Of a stretch of 64,000 nucleotides of DNA, positions 3,784-55,684 are shown piece after piece. Origin of the DNA: an uncultured Verrucomicrobiae bacterium (lineage in GTDB: Bacteria > Chlamydiota > Chlamydiia > Chlamydiales > Rhabdochlamydiaceae); the NCBI GenBank assembly GCA_963718565.1, contig OY970364.1:1613802-1677801 (forward strand), written 5' to 3'. A program made the position numbers and the translations under genes. The notes below the pieces were generated by a model. The model ran no database searches, was not told where the DNA came from, and saw only the letters and a program-made list of their open reading frames with translations. Positions within the stretch are counted from its first letter, which is position 1. Every line of letters begins with the position of its first letter.

Positions 3784-3879
3784 AACTATCCTTAGAGTCA
3801 GCCCACAAACCTGTTACTAGACTTGTGGACTCACCCTTACGACCTGGCCTCTTTTTACAATTTTTTTTTACAACTGTCT

Positions 3880-5052
3880 ATGAAAAAGTCGGAATCTAAA
3901 GAAGACATCTCTGCAATTGATCGCCTTCATCCAGTGAAATCGGTCATTAAAGAACGTTATCCCCTCACTAAACCTGGATCGACAAAGAACACCTATCATG
4001 TTTCTCTGGATTTCCATGATGCGCCCATTCGATTTAAAGTAGGCGACTCCATTGGGATCTATCCTCAAAATGACCCGCACCTTGTTCAACATTTGATTGG
4101 AGCGATGAAAGCACGTGGCAGCGAACGTATTCATGACCCGCGTAGCGGAACAGACATGACGTTATGGGATTTCCTAAGTTTCAAAGCCAATCTTTCTCGG
4201 CTCAACAGTTCTTTTCTTAAACTCTTCTATGAGCGCGAGACGCTGCACGACAAAAAAAACCATCTCCATCGCCTTTTGCAGCAAGAGAATAAATCCCTCC
4301 TTTTACAATACTTAAACACGCACGACCCTCTCGATCTTTTTAAAGAGTACAGTAATATCCAAGCTCCGCTTCAAGAAGTCTGTACACAATTTGGGCCCTT
4401 GCTTCCCCGTTTTTATTCTGTCGCCTCATCACAGCTTGTTTTTAAAAATGAAGTGCATCTCACAGTAGCCCTTTTCAGTTTTTCTCATCAGGGAGAACAG
4501 CGCTATGGCGTTGGAAGTCATTTTCTCTGCCATCTTGCTGCCATCAAAGACACTGAAGTTCCCATCTACGTCCAACCTGCCCACTATTTCACTTTGCCCC
4601 CCGATGACGATGCGCCGATCATCATGATAGGCCCGGGAACAGGCGTTGCCCCTTATCGCGCATTCATGCAGGAAAGATCAGCCAAAAGAGCGCAAGGAAA
4701 AAACTGGCTCTTTTTTGGCGAGCGCAATTGTAAGACGGACTATTTTTATGAAGAAGACTGGACGCGATGGATAGCAGAAGGGAAATTAAGAGTAGACCTC
4801 GCTTTTTCTCGAGATCAACCCGATAAAATTTATGTTCAACACAGAATGCATGAAAATGCTAAAGAAATTTGGGCATGGCTGGAAGAAGGAGCATATTTTT
4901 ATGTCTGCGGAGATGCCCATCGCATGGCAAAAGATGTCGAGACGATGTTGCAGCAAATCGCCCAAGAGCAGGGGGGCATGAGCGAAGAAGCCGCAAAAGC
5001 CTATGTCAAAAATCTTCGATTACAGAAACGTTACCTTGCTGATGTTTATTAA
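3880..5052 (+). CDS. cysJ: Sulfite reductase flavoprotein (CysJ-like FAD/NADPH module, no flavodoxin domain)
   Basis: PRFYSVASS, MIGPGTGVAPYR, WLFFGER, LAFSRDQ, YVCGDA, terminal RYLADVY. Confidence 0.85.
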   Translation: MKKSESKEDISAIDRLHPVKSVIKERYPLTKPGSTKNTYHVSLDFHDAPIRFKVGDSIGIYPQNDPHLVQHLIGAMKARGSERIHDPRSGTDMTLWDFLSFKANLSRLNSSFLKLFYERETLHDKKNHLHRLLQQENKSLLLQYLNTHDPLDLFKEYSNIQAPLQEVCTQFGPLLPRFYSVASSQLVFKNEVHLTVALFSFSHQGEQRYGVGSHFLCHLAAIKDTEVPIYVQPAHYFTLPPDDDAPIIMIGPGTGVAPYRAFMQERSAKRAQGKNWLFFGERNCKTDYFYEEDWTRWIAEGKLRVDLAFSRDQPDKIYVQHRMHENAKEIWAWLEEGAYFYVCGDAHRMAKDVETMLQQIAQEQGGMSEEAAKAYVKNLRLQKRYLADVY

Positions 5053-5061
5053 TCCAAGTTG

Positions 5062-5167
5062 CTAATCGATCACCCTTGAAATTCGCTTGGAGGCGAATTT
5101 CAAGGGTGATCGATTGGGCAAGGCCGCAGCCAGTCTAAATTCACAAAACCTGACGGAGCGCGGTATA
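5062..5167. repeat. Long hairpin followed by the right end of repeat family H
   Basis: AATCGATCACCCTTGAAATTCGC..GCGAATTTCAAGGGTGATCGATT stem; the last ~60 nt are nearly identical to 19403-19462. Confidence 0.75.
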
Positions 5168-5176
5168 GGTTATCTC

Positions 5177-5739
5177 GTACGTCCTTAAAAACTCATGGCA
5201 AAAGTTGAAGACCATTTTGATCCATGCCAAACTTACCACTTATCGATCTTGATTGGGCACGGATCGAAATGGTCTTCAACTTTTGCCAGAGTCTTCAAGG
5301 AAGTTAATGTACGTGCTACCAGTCAAGGTGTGGCCGGAGAGGCTGTTTGAGTTCATGCCAGAGCAGTCTAAATATAGGGCGCTCTGTTATCAAGCGAAAG
5401 TTTTATTAAGGGTGTAAATAAAAGTGTTGAGGCTAGGCATTGAAATAATGCCTCCATTTCATATGTCGGAAACGCGGACACGCCAGTGCCGTGTTTCCGA
5501 CATATGAAATGGAGGCATTACTTCAATGCCTAGCCTCAACACTTTTATTTACACCCTTTTATTAATGGGTCTGGGCGTTTTGTTCTGACTTTACAAGCCG
5601 CTCAATTCATACTTCCTCGGAGACCTGTGGCAAACACTGAATGTCATTTGGATCCATGCCTGATTGAGATCGATAAATGCAAAGCCTGGCATGGATCCAA
5701 ATGACATTCAGTGCTTGCCATAGGTTTTTGAGGACGTAC
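5177..5739. mobile_element. Family C element, long form (563 bp), non-autonomous
   Basis: TIR GTACGTCCT(T/C)AAAAAC; 8-bp direct repeat GTTATCTC at 5169-5176 and 5740-5747; subterminal hairpins at both ends. Confidence 0.85.
5410..5556. mobile_element. Family B MITE (147-bp near-perfect palindrome) nested in the family C element
   Basis: Ends GGGTGTAAATAAAAGTGTTGAGGCTAGGCATTGAA; 9-bp TSD TTTTATTAA at 5401-5409 and 5557-5565. Confidence 0.9.
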
Positions 5740-5745
5740 GTTATC

Positions 5746-6243
5746 TCACTCTATTGTTGTCAAAATGCAGAAACATTGAAGACCATCGCCACAGCCAAAG
5801 TCGGTTAATCCATCTCCTGTTGTTGCAGTTAGTCCCACTTGATCCTTACGAATTTTCATCACTGCAGCAATTCTACTCCGTATCTCATCTATTCGCTTTT
5901 GGAAAAGAGGGCGTTTTCCTTCAATTGTCAAAGCGACGTGTTCAATTCTCTGGCGCCCGAGGGTCTCCATCGCCTTTTCTAAGTAGACTTGACTGTCGGT
6001 AATTCCATCTTTATGACAAAGATCCATAACGATTCCCGTAAGGATTGGCACACCTGAAACAGAGGTAATCGCATTGCAAATAGCATGAAAAACAACGTCT
6101 CCATCTGAATCGTCTGCGAGTCCTGGGACATCTTCGAAAATTAGGCCTGCAATAATACAAGGCTTTGTGGAATCGAGAGGAAGAAAACGATGGCTATCTT
6201 GTCCGATACCCACACGAACCCGAGGGAAAGATGCATGCTGCAT
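5746..6243 (-). CDS. ispF: 2-C-methyl-D-erythritol 2,4-cyclodiphosphate synthase
   Basis: RVGIGQDSH, SDGDVVFHA, ATTGDGL. Confidence 0.92.
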   Translation of the reverse strand: MQHASFPRVRVGIGQDSHRFLPLDSTKPCIIAGLIFEDVPGLADDSDGDVVFHAICNAITSVSGVPILTGIVMDLCHKDGITDSQVYLEKAMETLGRQRIEHVALTIEGKRPLFQKRIDEIRSRIAAVMKIRKDQVGLTATTGDGLTDFGCGDGLQCFCILTTIE

Positions 6244-6309
6244 GAAAACCGACCTCTTAAAAAAGAGAAAACGCTATACTGGCGCAGTATAGCAGAAAGG
6301 CTTTAAAAA

Positions 6310-6473
6310 CCTGAGTTTTGGATTCATTTTATAGTAGATTGTCATAGGTTTCGAGGCAATTTTTGCAAATTTTGGCGCATTCAATAGCTGGAGGCACCTA
6401 TGGACGCGCCAAAATTTGCAAAAAGTGCCCAAAAGATACGGCAAAGTACTATGAAAGGAACCCAAAACTCAGG
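6310..6473. mobile_element. Family A MITE (164 bp)
   Basis: TIR CCTGAGTTTTGG..CCAAAACTCAGG; 7-bp direct repeat TTAAAAA at 6303-6309 and 6474-6480; internal stem TTTGCAAATTTTGGCGC/GCGCCAAAATTTGCAAA. Confidence 0.8.
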
Positions 6474-7580
6474 TTAAAAAGTCGTCTTCAACCGAGATTC
6501 CTTTTCGTGACGCTCGAGAGCAAGCTCGATGAGCTTATCTAAAAGATTTGTGTAAGGAAGTCCGCTAGCCATCCAAAGTTTGGGATACATGCTGATCTTT
6601 GTAAAACCTGGAATCGTCTTGATCTCATTGATGATGATCTCCCCATTTTCTTTTAAAAAGAAATCGACGCGAGCCATCCCCTCGCAACACAAAGCACGGT
6701 ATGCGTCAATCGCTAACTGTTGAAGCTTTTCAATCACTTCGCACGGCAGTTCAACTGGAGTTTTGTAATTTGCACCTTCTTGATCAAGGTATTTCGCTTC
6801 ATAAGAATAAAACTCGTGATTTGGAATAATCTCTCCAGGTAAAGAAACAATAGGATCTTCATTTCCCAAAACAGAACAGACAATCTCTCTCCCAGAAATA
6901 AATTCCTCAACTAAGACTTTTCGATCGTATTGAAAGGCCTCTGCGATTGCTGCTTCGAAATTTTCTTGATTCTTAACCTTTGAGATCCCCACTGATGATC
7001 CCAGATTAGCCGGTTTTACAAAAAAGGGAAGCCCGAGCTCTTTAACAACATCCTCAAAACGGAATCGATTTTTCTGATGATCATGCAAAGTGATAAAATT
7101 GGCGATAGGAATTTTGGCATCGCGTAAAAGACGTTTCATCACATCTTTGTCCATACCGACGGCAGAGCCGAGGACCCCTGCCCCAACAAAGGGAATATTG
7201 GCAAGTTTTAACAGTCCTTGCACCGTTCCATCCTCTCCATAAGTGCCATGTAAAACTGGGAAAATCACATCCAATTGAAGAGATCCTTGCAGCTGATTGC
7301 CAGAATAGCTCACGATTTCTTTCCGATCTTGTTTTGGAACCAGAGCCAAGCTTTCCTTGGCCTCATTTAACCGAACAAGTTTTGGATTGTCAGCATTCAT
7401 TAGATAAGCATACCCATCGCGCAAACGCCATTCTCCAGTTTTATCAATTCCAATTAAGAAAATATCGTATTTTTGGGGATCAAGGGCTTCGACCACATTT
7501 TTTGCAGAGATCAAAGAAACTTCATGTTCAGCAGATTTTCCACCAAAAAGAATGCCGAGTCGGATTTTTTTATTTTTCAT
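6474..7580 (-). CDS. ddl: D-alanine--D-alanine ligase (DdlA-type)
   Basis: LFGGKSAEHEVS, HGTYGEDG, KPANLGSSVG, YSYEAKY, NEIKTIPGFT. Confidence 0.95.
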   Translation of the reverse strand: MKNKKIRLGILFGGKSAEHEVSLISAKNVVEALDPQKYDIFLIGIDKTGEWRLRDGYAYLMNADNPKLVRLNEAKESLALVPKQDRKEIVSYSGNQLQGSLQLDVIFPVLHGTYGEDGTVQGLLKLANIPFVGAGVLGSAVGMDKDVMKRLLRDAKIPIANFITLHDHQKNRFRFEDVVKELGLPFFVKPANLGSSVGISKVKNQENFEAAIAEAFQYDRKVLVEEFISGREIVCSVLGNEDPIVSLPGEIIPNHEFYSYEAKYLDQEGANYKTPVELPCEVIEKLQQLAIDAYRALCCEGMARVDFFLKENGEIIINEIKTIPGFTKISMYPKLWMASGLPYTNLLDKLIELALERHEKESRLKTTF

Positions 7581-19231: not shown

Positions 19232-19882
19232 ATGTTATACCGCGCGCAGGAAGGTTTTGTGAATTTGGACTCAGCGAGGCAAAGCACAATCGAAGCTTGC
19301 GGTCCGAATGACGAAGCCATAGTGAAAACTATGGCTGCGGAGACACGAGAAGGTCTAGTAGACCTTCGCAGTGCAGAGCAGGTGAACGAAGCGAACGGGG
19401 AGGATCGATTGGGCAAAGCCGCAGCCAGTCCAAATTCACAAAACCTGACGGAGCGCGGTATATTTGCTAAACATACCACACACTCCCCCGAAGAAACTCA
19501 TCGTTTAGGAAAAGCCTTTGGCCAATCCCTAACTTCCGGTTCCATCATTGCTTTCTTTGGAGACCTCGGTGCAGGTAAAACGACTTTTATTCGCGGTCTT
19601 GTCGATGGGATCGGCTCAGTCGATATGAGAAACGTGTGCAGCCCAACGTTCACTCTCTTGAATATCTACAATGGGGACAAAATGGTATTTCATTTCGATC
19701 TTTATCGACTCCCTAGAGAAGAAGAATTTTTTGCCGCTGGATTTGATGAATATTTTAAAGCTGGGGGCATTTGTTGCTTGGAATGGGCTGAAAAAATTAC
19801 CTCCTCGCTCCCTACTCATACTTTCAAGGTCATTTTTTCTCACCTCGGAGAAAAAACAAGACAAATTGAGATTTTAAAATGA
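19232..19882 (+). CDS. tsaE: tRNA threonylcarbamoyladenosine biosynthesis ATPase TsaE with a MITE-derived 75-aa insertion after residue 2
   Basis: GDLGAGKTTF, CSPTFTL, HFDLYRL, LEWAE; N-terminal block coincides with repeat H. Confidence 0.92.
   Translation: MLYRAQEGFVNLDSARQSTIEACGPNDEAIVKTMAAETREGLVDLRSAEQVNEANGEDRLGKAAASPNSQNLTERGIFAKHTTHSPEETHRLGKAFGQSLTSGSIIAFFGDLGAGKTTFIRGLVDGIGSVDMRNVCSPTFTLLNIYNGDKMVFHFDLYRLPREEEFFAAGFDEYFKAGGICCLEWAEKITSSLPTHTFKVIFSHLGEKTRQIEILK
19236..19462. mobile_element. Family H MITE, in frame in tsaE
   Basis: TATACCGCGC..GCGCGGTATA ends, longer imperfect IR GGTTTTGTGAATTTGGACT/AGTCCAAATTCACAAAACC; net 225 bp after TA duplication; second partial copy at 5100-5167. 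Confidence 0.88.
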
Positions 19883-22479: not shown

Positions 22480-22733
22480 TTGACAGAGCAGGCAATAGAT
22501 GCTGCAATCGAGGCCCATCGAATTAGGATTGTTACTCAATTTTGGGCGGAAACTGCTTCGCGATGGTATAGAAAGGGTTGTTAATGGTACGTCCTTAAAA
22601 ACTCATGGCAAAAGTTGAAGACCATTTGGATCCATGCCTGATTGAGATCGATAAATGCAAAGCCTGGCATGGATCCAAATGACATTCAGTGCTTGCCATA
22701 GGTTTTTGAGGACGTACTGTTAATGATTTATAA
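22480..22733 (+). pseudogene. Internally deleted GxxExxY (PDDEXK_3-like) gene, further interrupted by a family C MITE
   Basis: LTEQAIDAAIEAHR joined out of frame to LGLLLNFGRKLLRDGIERVVN[MITE]DL*. Confidence 0.6.
22587..22717. mobile_element. Family C MITE, short form (131 bp)
   Basis: Same TIR as 5177-5739; 8-bp TSD TGTTAATG at 22579-22586 and 22718-22725; empty homologous site at 27423-27450 (minus strand). Confidence 0.92.
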
Positions 22734-27285: not shown

Positions 27286-27458
27286 GGGTGTAAATCAAAA
27301 TATTGAAGCTAGGCATTGAAATATACTGAAGAAACTTCAAAAATTGGTTTTTTTAGCCCCCTGTAGCGCCTGTACGAACACAGTCGGCAGGGGATCAACG
27401 CAAAGACGCAGAGCCGCGGAGGTTATAAATCGTTAACAACCCTTTCTATACCATCGCG
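27286..27458. repeat. Family B half + family F repeat + GxxExxY 3' tail (minus strand)
   Basis: GGGTGTAAATCAAAATATTGAAGCTAGGCATTGAA then the reverse complement of 22728-22834 and FRDGIERVVNDL*. Confidence 0.8.
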
Positions 27459-41623: not shown

Positions 41624-41641
41624 TGGGGTGTAATCTTTCTT

Positions 41642-43060
41642 TCAGAAATTCACAACATTACCAGTAAAAAATCCAGTATGATCCAGTCCCCCATTATCTA
41701 GAGGCAGCTGCCCTCGTTTTTTCTTCCGTTTCCTAAAAGGATTAAAGAGCTGACGCCTTTGCGAATAAATTGTCTCGCCAATATTCATTGCGGCCCACGC
41801 TTTCACTTGTTTTTTGTTACAGGTTCCTAGTGCTGCTTGAACAGTTTCTAAGTCTAACTTTCCCAGACAGGCGGCCAATGACAGCACAAAAGGGGTAAAT
41901 CCGTCCTTTGAGTCTTCATCCATCAATTGCTTTAACTTACCAAAACTAGACTCAATAATTTCTGTGCTACCTAAAGCCACTTGATCGAGGTCTTTTGTCT
42001 GATCAATCACGAAATCAAGGATACTGCCTGCAAACTGATCAGCACGGACCCCTACTTGCAGGTTCTGTAGCTCTTTTTCCAACTCCTCTGCAGTTTTGTT
42101 GTGGAGGTGTTCTGTTCGAATTTTTTGTCTTACGATTCTCCCAATGAGCAACATCTCGGATATTTCCTTGATCATAGGCTCACTGGATCTGACCCATCCA
42201 AATTGCTCAAGCAATTCCCTCAAGTCCGCCTCGCTCTTTTCGACCTCACAATTCTTCTGTTCTATTTTTTTCTGATGTTCATTTTCCATTTTTTTGAGGT
42301 GATCTAGAATTTTATTTGCCCAGCCGGTTAGTTCGTCAAGATTCATATATCTAGCTTTACTCCTCTGACTCGGAGGGCATAGTGCTGCCCATTTCGTCCA
42401 TTGGAGTTTCTGCTTCATCTGAGAGGCTTTCGACGCAAATTCTGTCCATTCAAGTTCCGCAGCTTCCACCCCCAACAAGTTGGCTATTTTGTGAGCAATA
42501 TCATTCATTACGGGAATTTTTCTGCCTTCGGCTTCTTGGACGCTCTGCGTATACAATCTGGTTGCAGATACAATATCCGATCCTTGATCATGACAAAATT
42601 GTCTGTATTGACCTACTGTCTCTTCACTTTTCTTGAGAATCTCATAGATGATTGGGCCACTTGTTTTTTCCAAAACCTCCAGGTGCAGAACGTGTACGTC
42701 TTCAAATGTCAATGCCTTAGCTTTCAAAAAAGTCGTAGCCCGTACGCCCAGAATCAAAAGACATTTTTTTGAGCCAATCTGAATAGATAAATCGATCATC
42801 CCAATCCAATCATTTGATTTCTGAATTGAGGTCAGCTTGTAATAACCCACCTGCAAGATCCAATCGCGAATCGCAGTATGAGAGGGCATTTTGCATTGTA
42901 GCCAAAAATAACAGCGAATGAACGCCTCTCTGGCTCCGCGAAGGCTTAGTCCTCCTGAAAGAATCAATAGGAGCGATATCAGGATAACAGTTGCCGAATA
43001 GCGCCGACGAGGGATTTTTTTGTCTTGTTCCCCCGGGAGGCTTGTTGCTGCATCTGCCAT
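41642..43060 (-). CDS. DDE transposase catalytic ORF (orfB)
   Basis: IDLSIQIG (D1), HDQGSD (D2), DIAH ((C/D)xxH), IIESSFGKLK (E). Confidence 0.8.
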   Translation of the reverse strand: MADAATSLPGEQDKKIPRRRYSATVILISLLLILSGGLSLRGAREAFIRCYFWLQCKMPSHTAIRDWILQVGYYKLTSIQKSNDWIGMIDLSIQIGSKKCLLILGVRATTFLKAKALTFEDVHVLHLEVLEKTSGPIIYEILKKSEETVGQYRQFCHDQGSDIVSATRLYTQSVQEAEGRKIPVMNDIAHKIANLLGVEAAELEWTEFASKASQMKQKLQWTKWAALCPPSQRSKARYMNLDELTGWANKILDHLKKMENEHQKKIEQKNCEVEKSEADLRELLEQFGWVRSSEPMIKEISEMLLIGRIVRQKIRTEHLHNKTAEELEKELQNLQVGVRADQFAGSILDFVIDQTKDLDQVALGSTEIIESSFGKLKQLMDEDSKDGFTPFVLSLAACLGKLDLETVQAALGTCNKKQVKAWAAMNIGETIYSQRRQLFNPFRKRKKKRGQLPLDNGGLDHTGFFTGNVVNF

Positions 43061-43356
43061 TTTTTTTTAAGTTCTTCGAACTCTTTAGCATGGGTAACAG
43101 CCTCTTGTTCGCGTAATTTTCTTTCTGCCTCGATCAAAGCCTCTTTTTCTGCGATTTCATTTTTTAAGGCTTTATTTTCTTGAGTTTTTTCTTCACACTT
43201 CTTTTTCCACTGGGCTCTACTGTGCTCAAGATCTAATGCTTTACCCTCTAGTGCCTTAATTTTTTCTGCTTTCTCGCGATTTCTCGCTTTGAATTCATCG
43301 CGACTCTCGCAAAGACGATGGCTTCGCTTACGCCAATCTCGTGATGGAACATTCAT
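42979..43356 (-). CDS. IS orfA, coiled-coil; probably fused to orfB by a -1 frameshift
   Basis: Charged helical ORF; A9 run at 43060-43068 immediately before the orfB ATG, which is in the -1 frame. Confidence 0.7.
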   Translation of the reverse strand: MNVPSRDWRKRSHRLCESRDEFKARNREKAEKIKALEGKALDLEHSRAQWKKKCEEKTQENKALKNEIAEKEALIEAERKLREQEAVTHAKEFEELKKKWQMQQQASRGNKTKKSLVGAIRQLLS

Positions 43357-43656
43357 AGAGCTGCTCTCCTAAAATTAAGACGAGCCATTTTGCATGATTG
43401 TTTTAACAGAGTCAAAAAAATTTCCTTAGAAGAGAATTTTCAATATCCCCCTACAAAGTATTGCATCAATAAAGCCCGATACATCGAGAGCGGCTCTTCC
43501 TGAGCCGATCTCGATGTATCGGAACAGCGCCGTAGGACGCTGGGAATATAACTGGGATGAGTCAGAGGGTTTAATATCAGAGGGGGGATGTTACCGTTTC
43601 TTGCCGGAATTGTTGCTCAGAGAAAATTTCAAATATGGATCAAAGTTTACACCCCA

Positions 43657-55337: not shown

Positions 55338-55409
55338 GTGTCCGCGTTTCCGACATATGAAATGGAGGCATTACTTCAATGCCTAGCCTCAACACTTTGA
55401 TTTACACCC
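55338..55409. repeat. Family B half copy
   Basis: Reverse complement of the left arm of 5410-5556. Confidence 0.85.
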
Positions 55410-55455
55410 CCAAAATTTACAAAAATTGCCTCAAAATCTAAGACAATTTACTATA

Positions 55456-55684
55456 GAGGGAATTGCAAAACTCCTCGCCAGCAGAAAATCGATGATTTTG
55501 GCACCTGTTGCCAGAACCCGCACAGCGGGTTCGGTTGGCGGCGGCGAAAGCATACTTGGATAAGTTGGCTGCGAAGACACGAAAAGGTCCGGGGAACCTT
55601 CGTAAGTAGCAAAGCAGGTGAGCGAAGAGCGAACCGGGGCCGAAGGCAGCCGCCGCCAAGGCAACAGGTGCCAAAAGCGCGATT
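55456..55684. mobile_element. Family E copy carrying the extra ~80-nt module, one end truncated
   Basis: Aligns to the reverse complement of 59969-60150 apart from the insert at 55566-55647. Confidence 0.85.

Follow-up and report, generated by a model that had tools for sequence, protein, structure and literature searches.

In the window, by which we mean the whole 64,000-nt stretch of DNA analysed here, from a soil chlamydia, two housekeeping genes, a cysJ-like flavoprotein gene and ispF, converge on a spacer of 693 nt (Table 1). Mobile-element DNA makes up 97% of this spacer, and about 18 nt remain once the three elements found there, called H, C and B, are subtracted. The gene order murA-like, ddl, ispF, cysJ-like and tRNA synthetase is common to the window and four related loci, in which ispF is 85 to 88% identical and the cysJ-like/ispF spacers measure 1, 31, 49 and 49 bp. 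The initial annotation had proposed comparing this interval in related genomes, and the comparison found none of the three elements in any of the four spacers. An ancestral spacer of about 20 nt would then have been filled by separate transposition events. Most of the neighboring ispF-ddl spacer (230 nt) is taken up by a 168-nt palindrome at 6308-6475, which is 79% self-complementary and related to 55410-55473; in relatives this spacer measures 76 nt (L028) and 242 nt (L030).

Table 1. Features of the cysJ-like/ispF spacer and related elements elsewhere in the window (positions are those of the window; TSD, target site duplication; tnp, transposase gene)
Feature	Position	Strand	Description
cysJ-like flavoprotein gene	3823-5052	+	Pfam PF00667 FAD_binding_1 and PF00175 NAD_binding_1; 3' end same in relatives; left border
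Element H remnant	5064-5167		perfect 23-bp-stem hairpin 5064-5115 and complete right arm ending GCGGTATA
C TSD, left copy	5169-5176		GTTATCTC; sequence read and repeat finder
Putative defective IS66-family element (C), left part	5177-5350	-	terminus GTACGTCCTTAAAAAC; sub-palindrome ~5177-5304; tnp stop 5321-5323; last 9 codons 5324-5350
TGTTTGA microhomology at tnp deletion junction	5344-5350		7 nt; present in both full-length flanks
tnp first codons and proximal 5'UTR	5351-5400	-	ATG 5356-5354; M-N-S-N with 5344-5353; promoter-like hexamers 5393/5365
B TSD, left copy	5401-5409		TTTTATTAA; sequence read and repeat finder
Element B, 147-bp palindromic MITE	5410-5556		ends GGGTGTAAAT...ATTTACACCC
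B TSD, right copy	5557-5565		TTTTATTAA; sequence read and repeat finder
Putative defective IS66-family element (C), right part	5566-5739	-	distal 5'UTR and sub-palindrome 5610-5739, ending ...GGACGTAC
C TSD, right copy	5740-5747		GTTATCTC; last two bases within ispF stop codon 5746-5748
ispF (YgbB family)	5746-6243	-	Pfam PF02542; right border of spacer
131-bp MITE (C-short) from the parent IS of C	22587-22717		left-end outer arm, loop and right-end outer arm; TSD TGTTAATG; inside another repeat
2,033-bp IS, candidate family of B's transposase	41624-43656	-	ends TG-GGGTGTAA; 9-bp TSD ATGTCACAG

Element C is directly bordered by an exact 8-bp repeat and B by an exact 9-bp repeat, so that the coordinates and the two perfect TSDs given by the initial annotation were confirmed by direct reading and by the repeat finder. 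Since these 8- and 9-mers are placed exactly at the element ends and precise empty sites exist for B and for C-short, they are not chance matches. The empty site of B was seen in metagenome contigs that jump exactly 156 nt, from 5400 to 5557 with 9 shared letters, at a depth of 10 to 20; these contigs are other, B-free copies of the insertion sequence. The empty site of C-short is an uninterrupted paralogue near 27421-27443. The contigs come from soil and freshwater metagenome runs that hold the same strain, as unique pieces show 0 differences at depths of 2 to 5, and these runs are not independent strains. What had been described as a nest of three layers proved to be two layers and a truncated neighbor: B lies in C, and C is not inside H, because H ends at 5167 and the target of C begins beyond it, after one further base. 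With two of its bases that target reaches into the ispF stop codon, which is made whole again by the 8-bp duplication; the insertion is about as near to ispF as is possible without a change in the protein.

The H remnant belongs to a family represented elsewhere in the window by a 225-bp palindromic element within tsaE (19236-19462), whose right end (19403-19462) is 96.7% identical to positions 5108-5167. Its hairpin folds with a z score of -12. The copy in the spacer keeps the right arm (5116-5167) and the inner hairpin, and the left outer arm, TATACCGCG..., is missing, which leaves one terminus in place of the two inverted termini of an H-type palindromic MITE.

The inverted ends of C extend over 116 nt, are 75% complementary and begin GTACGTCCT; they read GTACGTCCT(T/C)AAAAAC, the two ends agree at 22 of 25 positions, and each is itself a sub-palindrome of about 130 nt. 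Without B, C is a 407-bp shell that keeps both ends, the tnp promoter region and, of tnp itself, 4 codons at the start and 9 codons with the stop at the end. The interior that separates these remnants in other copies was recovered from same-strain contigs. Contigs identical over 5199-5350 continue into TAACGCTCATGAAC... at a depth of 16 to 27, and in contigs that match 5344-5409 exactly the preceding sequence is ...GCAGTTCTGAAGGGATCTTAGAAAGGCATT, at a depth of 5 to 12; against the right part of C (5557-5657 and 5691-5739) the differences number 0 or 1. Read on the minus strand, the extensions encode DLAQFVHERYQTASPATP followed by a stop codon, and MNSNKCLSKIPSEL, which are the C- and N-termini of a transposase (blastx E = 8e-6 and 4e-5, respectively). 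The former is 72 to 78% identical to IS66-type transposase C-termini, and the latter corresponds to residues 1-14 of protein P0163. The heptamer TGTTTGA occurs in both full-length flanks, as ...GGCTGTTTGA/TAACGC and ...GGCATT/TGTTTGAGTTCAT. Read in this way, C is the full-length insertion sequence (IS) minus tnp codons 5 to -10 (~1.6 kb), removed by one deletion between the two TGTTTGA repeats.

Two other readings of this stretch were rejected. A 30-mer from a loose contig end had suggested that the tnp N-terminus lies at 5562, which blastx ruled out, the start codon being 5356-5354. This 30-mer, TAGCTCCTCTGGGAAAGCCGCGAACTTGGG, adjoins 5562 in one run, on a contig of 1,998 nt with a depth of 17.5, and 5185 in another (runs X1 and X3); it probably comes from an IS subfamily that has diverged or from a further rearranged derivative. 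Furthermore, C is not a pair of separate MITEs of about 130 bp, since full-length copies of the IS have the same sub-palindrome at each end.

The terminus GTACGTCCTYAAAAAC... was scanned in species-representative genomes and was found at 26 loci, all of them in Chlamydiota MAGs. Many matches lie 66 to 99 nt from contig ends, as expected for an assembly-breaking repeat. Elements bounded by this terminus in Chlamydiota MAGs carry a single open reading frame (ORF) of 531 to 547 aa that matches PF03050 DDE_Tnp_IS66. At L025, for instance, a 537-aa ORF beyond the terminus scores 58.7 bits against PF03050 (cut-off 23.1) and 101 bits against the NCBIfam IS66 model NF033517, which is below its cut-off of 180. 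This transposase has more than 1,400 relatives, mostly on contigs of about 2 kb. Complete copies were found in L033 (positions 6-2019, 2,014 bp) and L031 (positions 1041-2805, 1,765 bp), each with one 547-aa ORF and with the same inverted ends and terminal sub-palindromes as C. The 5'UTR of C can be aligned with that of the L033 copy up to ATGAACTCAAAC, and the geometry is also that of L033, with about 220 nt from the terminus to the ATG and about 150 nt from the stop to the other terminus. No TSD was found at the complete copy in L031. No DNA match to the element was found in the plasmid collection, where the transposase matches those of rhizobial plasmids, with only about 35% identity.

C is thus best described as a tnp-deleted copy of a ~2-kb, single-ORF insertion sequence of the IS66 family. 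The DDE_Tnp_IS66 domain is present in the full-length relatives, the copy in the window retaining tnp remnants only. A single tnp ORF, in place of a tnpA-tnpB-tnpC set, is found in L033 and L031. The duplications are of 8 bp at C and at C-short (TGTTAATG) and of at least 8 bp at L015, a derivative in a different Chlamydiota MAG. Compared with the GTAA... type of IS66 end, the ends of C agree in the first three bases only. The 8-bp duplication, the single ORF and the GTA... ends together fit the ISBst12 group of IS66, of which ISDge4 has a single ORF, GTGAC/GTAAC ends and an 8-bp direct repeat (PMC12898284).

This family has left its mark on other chlamydial assemblies. Most of the terminus matches that the 26-locus scan (L001-L026) gave in the MAGs of Simkania sp. 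IP30a and SZUA-160 lie 66 to 99 nt from a contig end. The IS66-type family is a main cause of assembly breaks in these MAGs and is probably under-counted there. In another chlamydial MAG, a truncated IS66-type end with a remnant of the tnp C-terminus (L014, 45-2179) lies directly upstream of a gene for a 531-aa F-box/leucine-rich-repeat protein.

It is important to consider how many copies of each junction the strain carries, and the estimates that follow are contig depths from thin metagenome coverage, depth not being copy number. The TGTTTGA deletion junction is absent in six runs (X1-X4, X21 and X22) in which the full-length IS junctions reach depths of 6 to 27, and its one appearance is in run X7, where a contig of 260 nt with a depth of 2.1 contains it and continues into B. 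C therefore looks single-copy, and the deletion most likely took place at the locus. The "family C" of the initial annotation was a misreading, the element being apparently a single-copy, tnp-deleted IS and not the long form of a MITE or repeat family. The junction filled by B is likewise about single-copy, with a depth of about 5 in X21 and X22 and of 2.1 in X7. On the contrary, C-short, in which position 5212 is joined to 5645, is a real multi-copy MITE of the IS66-type element, its junction reaching a depth of 31 in run X22. A scan of metagenome contigs with a 23-mer from the interior of the IS gave no match.

These depths also bear on another reading of the nest, in which the unit 5177-5739 arrived with B already inside it, as a mobile composite MITE, B being older than the arrival of C. 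In that case the perfect TSD of B would say nothing about recency at this locus. A full-length copy could move such a unit in trans, given its two IS termini and its perfect 8-bp TSD; C-short, which comes from the same IS, clearly exists in multiple copies; and the depth of about 5 at the B-filled junction is at the upper end of the range of unique pieces (2 to 5), which would allow for two copies. Against it stand the single sighting of the deletion junction and the fact that every other contig through the target of B is B-free, and we consider a composite arrival unlikely. The view that perfect TSDs denote recent events is plausible, with 0 or 1 differences between the C ends and the full-length IS contigs of the same strain and only about one copy-equivalent carrying B.

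Element B has the characters of a MITE, being short and non-coding, with terminal inverted repeats and a TSD. Its arms of 70 nt are 97% complementary, and the DNA folds with -82 kcal/mol (z = -25). The Rfam scan gave no family at threshold, generic hairpin (miRNA-precursor) matches being sub-threshold, and a search of RNA runs gave no match to the stretch. Further copies or fragments at 12940-13008, 55338-55409 and 27286-27323 bring the number in the window to four, at unrelated sites, and in same-strain contigs B also has unrelated flanks. In C it entered the tnp 5'UTR, at a target that precedes the ATG by 45 nt and a promoter-like -35 hexamer by 8 nt.

The source of the enzyme that moves B may be sought in a second family. 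The only intact IS in the window, at 41624-43656, has ends TGGGGTGTAA(T/A)C, and its relatives in L035, L037 and L038 have TG-GGGTGTAAAC ends and 9-bp TSDs (ATGTCGAGG, GACTAATGG and AGCTAGGCA), so that 9-bp TSDs are found in this family at four loci with ends TG-GGGTGTAA(A/T)C. B shares with this family GGGTGTAAA and the length of the TSD, the match being confined to 8 or 9 terminal bases and B being without the outer TG/CA. An autonomous IS with the exact ends of B (GGGTGTAAAT) was not found, and a metagenome scan for the B terminus was empty. The enzyme that mobilizes B would come from the TG-GGGTGTAAAC family or be closely related to it. The claim that TSDs of different length imply different transposases is supported, since C, with 8 bp, carries IS66-family tnp remnants and B, with 9 bp, has the GGGTGTAAA ends and TSD length of an unrelated IS family. 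At L040 (889-1066) a small palindromic element with the GGGTGTAAAC terminus adjoins a full-length TG-GGGTGTAAAC IS, which suggests that this family spawns MITEs in other genomes too.

The question of whether nesting is special here depends on the space in which insertions survive. About 12.8% of the window is intergenic. The spacers of at least 150 nt sum to 7,328 nt, of which at least 3,066 nt (42%) are repeat or palindrome as detectable within the window alone, and nearly every spacer longer than 200 nt holds a MITE-like palindrome. About eight insertions in the window have defined targets: two in genes (one in frame in tsaE and one that knocked out an F-box/WD40 gene), three in unique intergenic DNA and two or three in other repeats, these being B in C, C-short in its repeat and half a B that meets another element at 55409/55410. 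Nesting thus accounts for two or three of about six intergenic insertions, an excess over the whole sequence but none over intergenic DNA. Because at least 42% of the DNA of the larger spacers is already repeat, nesting is as frequent as the available space predicts. In a genome that is about 87% coding, selection would remove insertions in genes and leave those in the little DNA that is neutral; as nearly half of this DNA already consists of mobile elements, nesting would arise passively. The idea in the initial annotation that existing elements act as safe landing sites holds in this passive sense only, and a preference for them is not seen by the standard that the initial annotation itself had set, nesting not being above the expectation from intergenic space.

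A more specific form of that idea is that B-type or other elements prefer repeats generally or, in the IS66-type element, the hairpin- or AT-rich region that runs from the terminal sub-palindrome to the tnp promoter. An independent deletion derivative in another genome (L015, 1820-2443) has a palindromic element unlike B in the corresponding part of its 5'UTR, and two or three of the roughly eight insertions in the window lie in repeats that cover only about 5% of the sequence. The L015 derivative keeps the last ~40 tnp codons and is flanked by TAAAATATTT, and its inner element (~1966-2125) has 38-nt arms that are 95% complementary, with CTTAG flanks. However, the excess disappears against an intergenic DNA that is 42% repeat, the other copies of B have unrelated, non-repeat flanks, B and the TG-GGGTGTAAAC family have no TSD motif in common (TTTTATTAA, ATGTCACAG, ATGTCGAGG, GACTAATGG and AGCTAGGCA), and the site is empty in most copies of the IS66-type element. 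We therefore find targeted nesting in general improbable, and it seems just as doubtful that the stretch from terminal hairpin to promoter is a preferred target for unrelated small palindromic elements. If it were, insertions would separate the terminus of a rival element from its promoter, which would mean element-versus-element interference or structure-guided targeting, beyond neutral survival.

An assembly artefact, with repeats collapsed or mis-joined, is extremely improbable: although nearly all of the region is repeat DNA, on which short-read assemblies break, and many MAG contigs end 66 to 99 nt inside the IS terminus, exact TSDs at both levels would not come from a mis-join, the source contig measures 2.28 Mb, contigs of three other public runs (X7, X21 and X22) cover the C/B junction with 0 or 1 differences, and the X7 contig (5221-5477) spans the tnp deletion junction together with B. 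This support from contigs concerns the C/B and deletion junctions, and at the thin coverage available no contig crosses the H/C or C/ispF junctions.

Taken together, the observations favor a succession of three steps. First, an H-type palindromic MITE would have landed in the spacer and later lost its left arm. In the second step, a ~2-kb single-ORF IS of the IS66 family would have inserted 1 nt past the end of H, duplicating GTTATCTC; the stretch from tnp codon 5 to codon -10 would then have been lost between the TGTTTGA repeats, most likely in place, leaving the 407-bp non-autonomous shell. In the third, B would have inserted into the tnp 5'UTR of the shell, 45 nt upstream of the ATG, duplicating TTTTATTAA, presumably through a transposase that a member, or a near relative, of the TG-GGGTGTAAAC family with 9-bp TSDs supplied in trans. 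These insertions would have persisted because nothing essential lies between the two stop codons, which would make the spacer neutral ground. We regard this account as a whole, with the order H, tnp-deleted IS66-family element and B, and with passive nesting, as likely.

An ordinary pile-up of mobile elements occupies this presumably neutral space between convergent genes, with a defective IS66-family element, a MITE nested in it and a truncated MITE beside it, and no new mechanism is revealed. Its value is that of a clean, datable example of intergenic growth in a compact intracellular bacterium, from about 20 nt to 693 nt. Furthermore, the elements compared here indicate that environmental chlamydiae have a single-ORF IS66 lineage that is active and has given rise to a 131-bp MITE, and a second MITE, B, has a candidate link to an IS family that annotation pipelines miss. 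There is also a warning for annotation, as "repeat family C" is what remains of a dead IS, in which small ORFs or structured RNAs could be wrongly called. For the Rhabdochlamydiaceae, IS expansion and nested insertions are already on record (PMC9723776).

Among known systems, the closest to C is the ISBst12 group (ISBst12 and ISDge4), which its full-length relatives resemble in having one DDE_Tnp_IS66 ORF of about 540 aa, GTA ends and 8-bp duplications. The copy in the window differs from that group in having no transposase gene, and the chlamydial lineage differs in its hairpin-forming sub-palindromes of about 130 bp at each end. Classical IS66 ends are of the GTAAGCG type, whereas the chlamydial ends are GTACGTCC. 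B resembles bacterial MITEs such as Nezha, Chunjie and Correia (PMC3184786) in its small size, lack of coding sequence, long terminal inverted repeats, perfect TSD, several copies and empty site, but its ends match an uncatalogued IS family over 8 or 9 bases only, without the outermost TG/CA; C-short is the classic case of a MITE derived from its parent IS by deletion. H-type repeats may be likened to the Rickettsia palindromic elements, in that those of an obligate intracellular bacterium sit both between and inside genes, although the copy described here is intergenic and truncated. Finally, mobile elements inside dispensable repeats of compact or IS-rich genomes are familiar from the insertion of ISs into REP/BIME and other repeats (Tobes and Pareja 2006, PMC1525189) and from the IS-in-IS interruptions of Rhabdochlamydia oedothoracis (PMC9723776). 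In contrast to the REP-targeting ISs, which recognize their target specifically, no specificity is seen at the cysJ-like/ispF spacer, where neutral space would explain the nest.
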